Made by a program: the position numbers and the translations under genes. Positions 49,497 through 52,356 of a stretch of 64,000 nt of DNA are shown here, piece after piece. Position 1 is the first letter of the stretch. The number at the start of each line of letters is the position of its first letter. The stretch is from NCBI GenBank assembly GCA_018819225.1, contig JAHJQN010000003.1, forward strand, positions 96,001-160,000. Direction: 5' to 3'. This DNA is from Candidatus Micrarchaeota archaeon (GTDB taxonomy: Archaea > Micrarchaeota > Micrarchaeia > Norongarragalinales > SBBD01). Below the pieces are notes generated by a model. The model saw only the letters and a list, made by a program, of their open reading frames with translations, was not told where the DNA came from and ran no database searches.

Positions 49497-49604
49497 TGCA
49501 GGGGACCGGAGGTGCAACCGACCTTTCTTAACCAGAAAGCTCGACCAAAGAGCGTCAGCGCAGCGACTTTTTGATCGACATTTTTCAAAAAAGGTCGGAG
49601 TGCA
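49497..49604 (-). repeat. Hairpin element plus duplicated tRNA-Leu 3' end
   Basis: tgcaggggaccgga (49497-49510) vs tgcagggggccgga (49601-49614), 13/14 identical. Between them are nested inverted repeats ccgaccttt/aaaggtcgg and tcgaccaaagag/ctttttgatcga. Confidence 0.7.
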
Positions 49605-49685
49605 GGGGGCCGGATTTGAACCGGCGGACCCCTAAGGGACAAGCTCCTGAAGCTTGCGCATTTGACCAGGCTCTGCCACCCCTGC
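49601..49685 (-). tRNA. tRNA-Leu(CAG)
   Basis: GCAGGGG/CCCCTGC-A acceptor stem, CAAGC-TTCAGGA-GCTTG anticodon arm, long variable arm, GCCGG-TTCAAAT-CCGGC T arm; no encoded CCA. Confidence 0.96.
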
Positions 49686-49864: not shown

Positions 49865-50113
49865 ATGGGTTGTGGAGGAAACTGTCGATGTGGGCATGAC
49901 GAGATGACGTGGGTCGAGTACGGAAACCGAATCGCTTACGGCGCCAAGAAGGAGCTGCTGCACGAGGCGATCCGCGAACGCATGGCGAAAAAGCATGGAA
50001 AAGAAGTGGAAGCCATAGCGGAAGCGGTGATCAAGATCTCTGAAGGCGATTCCAAGCACGAAAACGAAGTGGAAGAGCGTTTAGAGAAGCTGTTCGGGGA
50101 AGAGGAAGAGTAA
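49865..50113 (+). CDS. Small helical protein with Cys/His-rich N-terminus (MGCGGNCRCGH)
   Basis: AGGTGA SD upstream, T-rich terminator-like tract downstream. Confidence 0.75.
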   Translation: MGCGGNCRCGHDEMTWVEYGNRIAYGAKKELLHEAIRERMAKKHGKEVEAIAEAVIKISEGDSKHENEVEERLEKLFGEEEE

Positions 50114-50210
50114 GCATGTCCGTTCGGGCGTTACGACGCCCCCTTTTTTCTTTTTTTCGAATCATGAGCCTCTGCTTTTTTAAGGTATTCCGGCATAATG
50201 GAGAGCGTAC

Positions 50211-50332
50211 GCTCCGATCGTCTAGTTCGGTCAAGGACGCAGGATTCTCAATCCTGTGACCCGGGTTCAAAACGCGCCGCTCTATCAAAACAACAGCAGC
50301 CAGAGCGTCTCGTGAAACTCCCGGTCGGAGCA
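50211..50332 (+). tRNA. tRNA-Glu(CTC) with a 47-nt intron at position 59/60 (intron 50272-50318)
   Basis: GCTCCGA/TCGGAGC-A acceptor stem, CAGGA-TTCTCAA-TCCTG anticodon arm. The T loop is interrupted by an insert that forms a BHB (TTCA/TGAA helix, AAA and ACT bulges). Confidence 0.92.
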
Positions 50333-50335
50333 TAC

Positions 50336-50370
50336 AAAAAAAAGAGGCAGGGGGTCTTTGCAGACCCCCT
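50336..50370 (-). terminator. 9-bp hairpin with GCAA tetraloop followed by a T8 tract
   Basis: Minus strand reads AGGGGGTCT-GCAA-AGACCCCCT-GCCTC-TTTTTTTT. Confidence 0.7.
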
Positions 50371-50404
50371 ATCATAATCAAACGAGTTAGTAACTCATCG
50401 TCGT

Positions 50405-50446
50405 TTACTCTTCGTTTTCTTGAGCCTTACCCTTTTTCTTTCCCAT
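50405..50446 (-). CDS. Putative 13-aa peptide MGKKKGKAQENEE
   Basis: GAGGTGA SD (50452-50458) 5 nt before the ATG; purine-rich codons. Confidence 0.45.
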   Translation of the reverse strand: MGKKKGKAQENEE

Positions 50447-50460
50447 GCGATTCACCTCAT

Positions 50461-50660
50461 CGGCGAGCATCCTTTGGCCTGGCTACCATTAGCTGAACGA
50501 CAAGCAGGCACATGTGTCTGGGCGGCGGCTCCTCCAGTAAACTTAACATCAGTTCATACGGTTTCGTTCCACGTTGTTTTCAGGCCGCCAATGTCCTCCC
50601 CAGCCCGGGACAGCCGACCGCCAAAGGCGCGCTCCCCGGATCCAGGCGCAGATCCCTTCC
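50461..50660 (-). ncRNA. Unidentified structured RNA (178-nt rod plus 5' hairpin)
   Basis: Nested stems CGG-GAGC-CCTTTGGC/GCCAAAGG-GCTC-CCG, GGCTGTC/GGTAGCC, GGCTGGG/TTCAGCT and GGCGGC/GCCGCC. G-U pairs only work on the minus strand. AT-rich TATA-like tract at 50680-50694. Confidence 0.6.
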
Positions 50661-50784
50661 GCAATGCAGTTCCAACAACATAAAAATATATTAATCCAGA
50701 TCTTACCGTCACGTGGCTGCCTTCCCAGGAGCACATCAAAAGCTTTAAACCGTCAACGCCATTGAGTATACGCGAGGGGTAGTA

Positions 50785-52356
50785 TTGCTAACGAAAGCGA
50801 ACGCGATACGAATCGGTATAGCACTGGCGCTGATCATCGGCATTCTGCTGCGATTCAATTTCGTTCTCCTGCCCATGAACGACGAGGTGCTATACATTGC
50901 CGCATCCATGGAAAAATACAGTGATTTTGCTCCGACTAAAGAACTCAACGCGGAGCACCCGCCGCTCGCGAAAATGTTTTTCGGAATGGCGTGCGTCATG
51001 GCGCCATGCGATTCCCACGTCCTCCAATTCCATTACCGAAAGTATTACCCGCTGGCGGTTCCGCTCATGAGCGTGGCCGCTGAACTCGTTCCGGTCATGG
51101 AAGCCATGCGTCTAATCGCCCTGCTGTTCTCATTGCTGTTGGCCATAGTCATTTACTACTACGCGCGAAAAGAATACGGAAAAGAAGCCGCAGCCGTTCT
51201 GTTCGCTATGACGATGATCTCCCCCAACCTTATCCTCTACTCCAACGTCGTCATGCTCGACATGATCATGCTCTTCTTTTTCACGACAACCCTATTCTAC
51301 TACATTTACACGTACCGCCGAAACCGCTCCATGAAACACCTCGCGGCATTAATGTCGCTTTTGATTCTCACGCTCGGCACCAAACAATACTTGCCGTTGT
51401 TACTGCTCCCGATCATCGCAGCCATTGAACTCACCGAGTACAGGAAACGAAAAGAAACGGATTGGAGATTGGCGGGCGGATTGGCGGCAGGCGTATTCAT
51501 TTTCTTTTTAATCATTTACCCGTTTGAATTATTTTATTACCACTTGTTCAACCATTACCAAGGATCCACGCTATTGAGTGCGGGCATCAACCTCAGCCTC
51601 CTGCCCACGCTGCTGGCGAGAATCGAACTTCCGCTCCTCGTCCTTCTGGGCCTGACGGCGCATGCGGCGTATAAGGAAAAGGCGTTTAGGCCGGAAGAAA
51701 CCTTTCTGTTACTGGCCGCAGGCATCATCGCATTCGCATCGCTAAAATTCCCTCCCGAACTCAGTTCGTTCCGGTACGTGCTCACGTTTTACCCTCCGCT
51801 CATACTCGTATGTGGAAAGGGCTTGCAGGAAATGAATGCCCAAAAAATGAAAGGTGTCATGGCCCTGCTCGGCCTATCGTTCATCGTCGTGATGGCTCAC
51901 TACCCGTACTACGATGATTTCAAGGGACCGCTGGGATACGCGTGGAGACACGAGCCCGTGGAACGCACCCCCTATTTCGATGTGCTCGCGTACATAAACG
52001 ATCACCATCCCGAAGAACGCGTTCTGACAACGGATTTCTACGCGCTCCCGTATACGGAAAAACGCTTGGCCAACTTCCTCGACTATTTCCGCGCCAAAGA
52101 CTATTTGAATGAAAGCAATTGGATCGCGGAAGACGAGGAAACCGGACAGATCAGTTTCCGAACGAAATTCCAGGACTCGTTTTGCACGGACCCGCAAATC
52201 GCGTACGCGCACCTCAAACAAGATGGAATGCGCATCGTGGTGTATCGCATCAAGAACGACGCCTCGCTGTTCTCGTGCCCGGCACTCGAGTTCGTGCTCC
52301 AACGCATGGAAGTCGAATACTCGAACACGCACTTCGCGGTATTTCGAATTGATTGA
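50785..52356 (+). CDS. GT-C (PMT/ArnT-like) glycosyltransferase, paralog C
   Basis: LPMNDEVLY...EHPPLAK, SNVVMLD, YPYYD...PVER. Confidence 0.8.
   Translation: MLTKANAIRIGIALALIIGILLRFNFVLLPMNDEVLYIAASMEKYSDFAPTKELNAEHPPLAKMFFGMACVMAPCDSHVLQFHYRKYYPLAVPLMSVAAELVPVMEAMRLIALLFSLLLAIVIYYYARKEYGKEAAAVLFAMTMISPNLILYSNVVMLDMIMLFFFTTTLFYYIYTYRRNRSMKHLAALMSLLILTLGTKQYLPLLLLPIIAAIELTEYRKRKETDWRLAGGLAAGVFIFFLIIYPFELFYYHLFNHYQGSTLLSAGINLSLLPTLLARIELPLLVLLGLTAHAAYKEKAFRPEETFLLLAAGIIAFASLKFPPELSSFRYVLTFYPPLILVCGKGLQEMNAQKMKGVMALLGLSFIVVMAHYPYYDDFKGPLGYAWRHEPVERTPYFDVLAYINDHHPEERVLTTDFYALPYTEKRLANFLDYFRAKDYLNESNWIAEDEETGQISFRTKFQDSFCTDPQIAYAHLKQDGMRIVVYRIKNDASLFSCPALEFVLQRMEVEYSNTHFAVFRID

Follow-up and report, generated by a model that had tools for sequence, protein, structure and literature searches.

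The 450-nt gap between a tRNA gene and a mannosyltransferase gene in the genome of a DPANN archaeon carries on its minus strand an ordered set of elements that resembles a small transcription unit. The question raised by this locus is whether the gap codes for an RNA of its own or is a spacer serving the neighbouring genes. The window, a stretch of 64,000 nucleotides, corresponds to C1:96001-160000 (contig C1) of a 1.37-Mb archaeal genome that is 90% complete and carries archaeal RNase P, SRP, fibrillarin and a T-loop tRNA intron. On one side of the gap lies the convergent plus-strand gene of tRNA-Glu(CUC) (50211-50332), on the other the divergent plus-strand gene of a PMT-family mannosyltransferase (50785-52356; Pfam PMT E 1e-9). 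The tRNA gene is interrupted by a 47-nt T-loop intron (50272-50318); ARAGORN recognises it once it is spliced to 75 nt, while the intron-bearing gene, a weak Rfam match, stays below the ARAGORN and Rfam cut-offs. Of the relatives, G002 has an intron at the same position, G003 has one in the anticodon arm and G006 has none. The locus has an identical sequence in a second assembly, so that it is no assembly error, and the feature is single copy in the host genome.

The surroundings of the gap have features of their own. A plus-strand gene at 49865-50113 codes for a member of an 82-aa Cys-rich protein family which in other DPANN contigs is usually divergent from a PadR gene; this partner is absent here and a tRNA-Leu takes its place. 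The tRNA-Glu promoter (50174-50191) also scores as a strong minus-strand promoter (11.8) that points antisense into the 82-aa gene. Next to many tRNA genes of the host (G000) there is a short hairpin element with A/T runs, together with an additional copy of one tRNA end, 5' or 3' (C1:168073, C2:102737, C2:331848-332009, C5:71392 and C7:235048; 49497-49614 in the window). One of these flanks has three tandem 5' ends, and the arrangement resembles a small element inserting at tRNA ends.

The first-pass annotation described in this gap a structured minus-strand unit of ~325 nt with a short reading frame. A Shine-Dalgarno sequence (GAGGTGA, 50452-50458) 2 nt after a long rod, and the 13-codon ORF behind it (50405-50446), are both found as it reported. 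The SD matches the 3' end of the host 16S rRNA perfectly and precedes the ATG at 50446 by 5 nt, the modal spacing; the frame has a Lys-rich start and an acidic end, and its stop codon ends at 50405. An SD with an ATG 3-7 nt later occurs at 19 sites genome-wide, ~12 of which start real genes. The number of such sites expected by chance is ~0.001 in this spacer and ~0.9 over all intergenic DNA, where two short ones are observed. Since ~0.9 chance sites are expected over all spacers, the ORF taken alone stands at about even odds, which the company of the terminator would raise. All its codons are common (each at least 10 per 1000), and pattern searches of genome, metagenome and viral collections gave no homologue. 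Read on the plus strand, the purine-rich ORF is rich in pyrimidines and could act as the signal at which transcription of tRNA-Glu ends. Elsewhere in the host, an intergenic SD-led micro-ORF of 8 codons ending in two Cys is found at C2:171443 (minus strand), and the gene that follows it has a metal-binding start.

Three minus-strand elements listed in the first-pass annotation follow the stop codon: a small hairpin (50384-50396) that competes with another weak stem, a perfect 9-bp stem capped by a GCAA tetraloop of the GNRA type (50349-50370), and a T8 tract (50336-50343) that is the likely 3' end. The 3' hairpins are the only part of the region to reach a local z of about -5, the value of the GCAA stem. 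Perfect 9-bp GNRA hairpins number three in the 1.37-Mb genome, the terminal one among them, and this hairpin is the most stable (tied) ahead of 246 intergenic T7+ tracts. GNRA-capped 3' stems are typical of stable RNAs. No annotated minus-strand gene is available for the hairpin and T8 to serve, and the next feature is the convergent tRNA-Glu. The idea of a self-contained unit with no downstream gene to attenuate is plausible and agrees with the end hairpin, the T8 and the SD.

The irregular rod (50461-50638, minus strand) has the nested stems and the A-rich stretch (50581-50562) attributed to it. Its main stems are 50634-30/50469-65, 50627-20/50478-71, 50615-11/50485-81, 50605-00/50496-91 and 50595-92/50502-499, and its apex is a multiloop with the A-rich strand and hairpins 50556-50538 and 50537-50518. 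With 60% G+C, as compared to 44% in the short spacers of the host, the rod scores as strongly non-coding in all six frames. Folding energy, the yardstick that the first-pass annotation had proposed, is no better than that of shuffled sequence for the rod (z -0.86) or the whole region (z -1.18), neither value being significant. The G-U pairs described as strand-specific are explained by composition, since the energy gap between minus and plus strands (12.4 kcal/mol) equals that of shuffles (12.0 +/- 4.7) with no excess. In contrast to the energy, the nesting of the stems exceeds that of controls. The rod has 37 pairs spanning more than 80 nt versus 11 in controls, and its long-range nesting depth (boundary-free) is 40, where shuffles and matched windows of the genome give 17 +/- 7; 2/120, 0/120 and 0/150 controls reach its depth (p ~0.01). 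The depth is stable across windows (40-46) and like that of the host's SRP RNA; ~3% of other intergenic strands nest to 37-51. Overall, the first-pass description is partly confirmed and its interpretation partly supported. Two further contacts seen by eye, a pseudoknot between loop and tail and a pairing of the apex with the ORF, gave p values of 0.73 and 0.08 in controls and were rejected.

In its full context the rod is predicted to engage the SD. A segment at 50644-50648 (minus strand) would act as anti-SD by pairing with 50457-50453 through 5 bp, one of them G-U, with a pair probability of 0.92, which extends the rod to ~210 nt (about 50648-50453). This segment lies in the loop of a 5-bp hairpin at the 5' end (GGATC-N8-GATCC, 50638-50655) noted in the first reading of the sequence. 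The hairpin is there as a sequence but remains unformed in the predicted best fold, where its loop pairs with the SD; it belongs to an alternative fold ~2 kcal/mol above the ground state. To open the start region takes 6.1 kcal/mol, a low value among 43 SD-led genes. The model thus predicts an SD that is masked yet not locked by the rod. Ribosome recruitment, as originally suggested, is possible, but the SD is predicted to be paired in the ground state, though cheap to open.

The promoter fits the unit less well. Scores were obtained with a BRE-TATA matrix trained on the host genome, for which the 10th percentile of real promoters is 6.5. The AT-rich TATA-like tract at 50680-50694 scores 7.7 on the plus and 3.9 on the minus strand. 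The tract is real, but the minus-strand role first given to it is not borne out, and it is more likely to be the promoter of the PMT-family gene than of the RNA unit. A second, weak TATA box that could serve a transcript from the minus strand lies at 50742-50749 (5.1 minus, 3.4 plus). Both candidates (3.9 and 5.1) are under the 10th percentile, so that neither makes a good minus-strand promoter.

Homologues, which the first-pass annotation had proposed to collect from DPANN genomes, were not found in ~400 relatives: BLAST against sets of 61 and 401 genomes gave none, nor did BLAST against phages and plasmids. Two single-sequence covariance models had no match in the order, the family, the relatives or, beyond the locus, the host genome itself, and exact patterns had none in genome, metagenome and viral collections. 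Such models and patterns are insensitive, and homologues are to be read as 'not found' rather than 'absent'. Two of the three findings that the first-pass annotation had named as refuting its reading, no homologues and a folding energy no better than that of shuffled sequence, have been obtained. These empty searches say little because the host genome is the sole member of its genus in the collections searched and the flanking proteins have no relatives above ~40% identity. The neighbourhood is variable and orphan-rich, and relatives differ from the host in the region behind tRNA-Glu. The one syntenic relative (G002), the closest to share the upstream gene and tRNA-Glu, has its contig end inside the tRNA intron; the 82-aa gene has further homologues, none of them syntenic with this locus.

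Judged from its letters, the locus probably codes for a one-off RNA of ~330 bases beside the tRNA gene. The reading preferred here, put forward tentatively and at somewhat less than even probability, is that the minus strand gives rise to a transcript of ~330 nt peculiar to this lineage, either a small mRNA or an RNA of dual function, in which the rod would loosely mask the transcript's own SD. Transcription would start near 50665-50720, and the leader of ~210 nt would fold into the rod, its basal helix pairing anti-SD with SD. The alternative 5' hairpin, ~2 kcal/mol away, might free the SD, so that the rod would tune translation of the 13-residue peptide instead of locking it. The GNRA hairpin and U8 may define and protect the 3' end and may also block read-through antisense to tRNA-Glu. 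A small lineage-specific transcript is the simplest account because a rare SD, a short frame, a rare end hairpin of matching orientation and a nested leader rich in G+C are ordered on one strand. It is opposed by the energy z-scores, the lack of homologues, the weak minus-strand promoter, the SD-ATG pairs expected by chance and the spacers that nest as deeply.

The first rival reading is an ordinary spacer. The hairpin, the T8 and the plus-strand U-rich tract would then be the terminator or insulator of tRNA-Glu, the AT tract the PMT promoter, and the rod and ORF products of chance. The rod's energy (z -0.86), the compositional origin of its strand bias, a promoter that fits the plus strand, the ~3% of spacer strands of equal nesting depth and the conservation not found in the genomes searched all agree with this view. 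It is nevertheless unlikely: three uncommon features occur together on one strand in the right order, and a 450-nt stretch with a G+C content of up to 60% is out of the ordinary among spacers of this host. A gene-like start context in a variable, orphan-rich neighbourhood, where the sequence downstream of tRNA-Glu differs among relatives, might instead point to a relic: a gene or mobile element would have inserted beside the tRNA and then lost its coding body, so that its leader, start and terminator are left. This is distinctly improbable for a single-copy sequence with no duplicated tRNA end, no coding remnant in any frame and no transposon-type ends when compared to TnpB loci of relatives.

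The nesting depth similar to SRP RNA, the pairing of the SD in the predicted ground state and a GNRA-capped 3' stem as in stable RNAs would also suit a purely non-coding RNA whose rod serves as protein scaffold or decoy and whose ORF is left untranslated; with neither a family motif nor a partner protein found, and with an SD that is cheap to open, we hold this to be very unlikely. An RNase P origin is the least probable of all, a far-fetched case in which a degenerate second RNase P RNA would have kept scattered conserved-region motifs and lost catalysis. The candidate shares some conserved-region-like words, in the right order, with archaeal RNase P RNA (RF00373), whose true gene is elsewhere. 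An ordered CR-I to CR-V motif chain built from the RNAs of 39 relatives scores above shuffles (nominal p 0.005-0.04) and, in one variant, comes 7th among 9148 bins of the genome. This test was post hoc, one among about eight families tried; the score is 23 versus 78 for the true gene, and motif placements differ between variants. The CR-I/P4 catalytic signature with its bulged U, present in 39/39 relatives, is missing here, and P2 is out of register, with at most 4/6 pairs after either CR-IV-like word versus 5-6/6 in most relatives. An nhmmer profile finds nothing at the locus among 141 matches to E 1000, and Infernal has no RF00373 match there.

Returning to the preferred small transcript, its relation to known families was examined. 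The first-pass annotation had assigned it to none, in agreement with Rfam, which has no match at either of two thresholds. Motif, Rfam and ARAGORN tests bear out that it lacks the hallmarks of RNase P, SRP helix 8 and tmRNA ends. Canonical RNase P and SRP RNAs as well as 5S, 16S and 23S rRNAs exist elsewhere in the genome, and for this reason the candidate replaces none of them. As a separate observation, at C3:98380-99110 a group I-like intron splits the host 16S rRNA gene close to the 3' end of the gene; the intron shows P, Q, R, S words and probably holds a LAGLIDADG reading frame. The 23S gene is ~750 nt longer than the model. The true 5S rRNA is at C1:258726, and a resemblance to it seen by eye failed its control; tmRNA is rejected by ARAGORN and Rfam. 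Words picked by eye for group II domain V, hammerhead, c-di-AMP/cobalamin riboswitches and bulge-helix-bulge had no Rfam match. A Y RNA lacks its Ro60 partner (no TROVE gene in the genome), and a retron or DGR template RNA lacks both a detectable reverse transcriptase and an A-specific variable copy. Fibrillarin is present, yet the complementarity to rRNA or tRNA that a guide of 10-12 nt would need is at background, which argues against a C/D guide RNA.

Comparison with the Cas12f tracrRNA used the Un1Cas12f1 sequence (PMC7229846) and locus L340; 48-70% of genome windows align equally well, and no cognate TnpB/Cas12f nuclease (PF07282) was found over cut-off in the 90% complete genome. L340:4176-6128 matches Un1Cas12f1 (Cas14a1) exactly in gene, tracrRNA and first repeat, and belongs to a GTDB genome whose title is Candidatus Woesearchaeota UBA12027. 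Another locus, L204 (G012:C93), carries a long TnpB/Cas12f-like gene whose stop is followed by ~200 nt of non-coding sequence that looks structured and differs from the TnpB right end usual in relatives. The likeness of the candidate to the CRISPR repeat is matched by 3-5% of genome windows, with no spacer seed. The host CRISPR locus (C2:1-10112 and C7:1-270) has an array split across contig ends, with a 37-nt repeat and at least 14 spacers; a type I-G-like cas operon on C2 comprises a cas4-cas1 fusion, csb2, csb1, cas8 and cas3 (by N-terminal appearance).

On small RNAs or regulation at the RNA level, the literature searched has almost nothing for DPANN archaea. To our knowledge, RNA switches have rarely been described in archaea. 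A structured leader controlling a 13-residue peptide would, if verified, be the first example in the lineage; at present the locus is a single orphan candidate, short of a discovery. It is rather doubtful that it represents a new class, an archaeal RNA of ~330 nt in which a long rod would turn the access of ribosomes to the RNA's own micro-ORF on and off. In a DPANN archaeon this would be a cis-acting translational switch or a ribosome-engaging RNA; a catalytically dead RNase P RNA paralogue, repurposed for this role, is less likely still.

Among known systems, archaeal SRP RNA (RF01857) has a long irregular rod and a nesting depth similar to the candidate, with two short shared words. RF01857 finds only C2:296783-297049, and the candidate has neither the motif nor the fold of helix 8, the corresponding segment being paired in the rod; the alignment p of ~0.014 comes from an eye-picked test, and the resemblance seen by eye failed controls. 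Bacterial 6S RNA, whose length the rod had been said to resemble, shares ~180-200 nt and paired ends with it, but its central bubble between two long arms contrasts with an apical multiloop here, and the likeness is left unsupported in view of the negative Rfam search. Archaea, as far as we know, lack sigma70. CreT RNA toxins (PMC8501985) share a strong SD, a start codon, a mini-ORF and a downstream stem-loop with the candidate, and the host has a type I CRISPR system. The candidate differs by its lack of consecutive rare codons, its distance from cas genes and its lack of a creA-like repeat or spacer match. CreT as defined is excluded because the codons are common and CRISPR repeat and spacer matches are at chance. 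Leader-peptide attenuators likewise combine a short ORF with two hairpins and a U tract behind it; the candidate, unlike them, lacks both a gene downstream and an evident antiterminator. Archaea are known to have small mRNAs and dual-function RNAs, such as the Methanosarcina mazei spRNAs and sRNA154 (PMC11456600), which like the candidate are stand-alone intergenic RNAs of a few hundred nt with a very short ORF. They have no sequence relation to the candidate, in which a rod of ~210 nt before the ORF pairs with the SD and translation is a prediction. With its SD, start codon, stop codon and own 3' end the candidate has the attributes of a small mRNA or dual-function sRNA, and while it falls into no named family it would function like a leader-controlled small mRNA.
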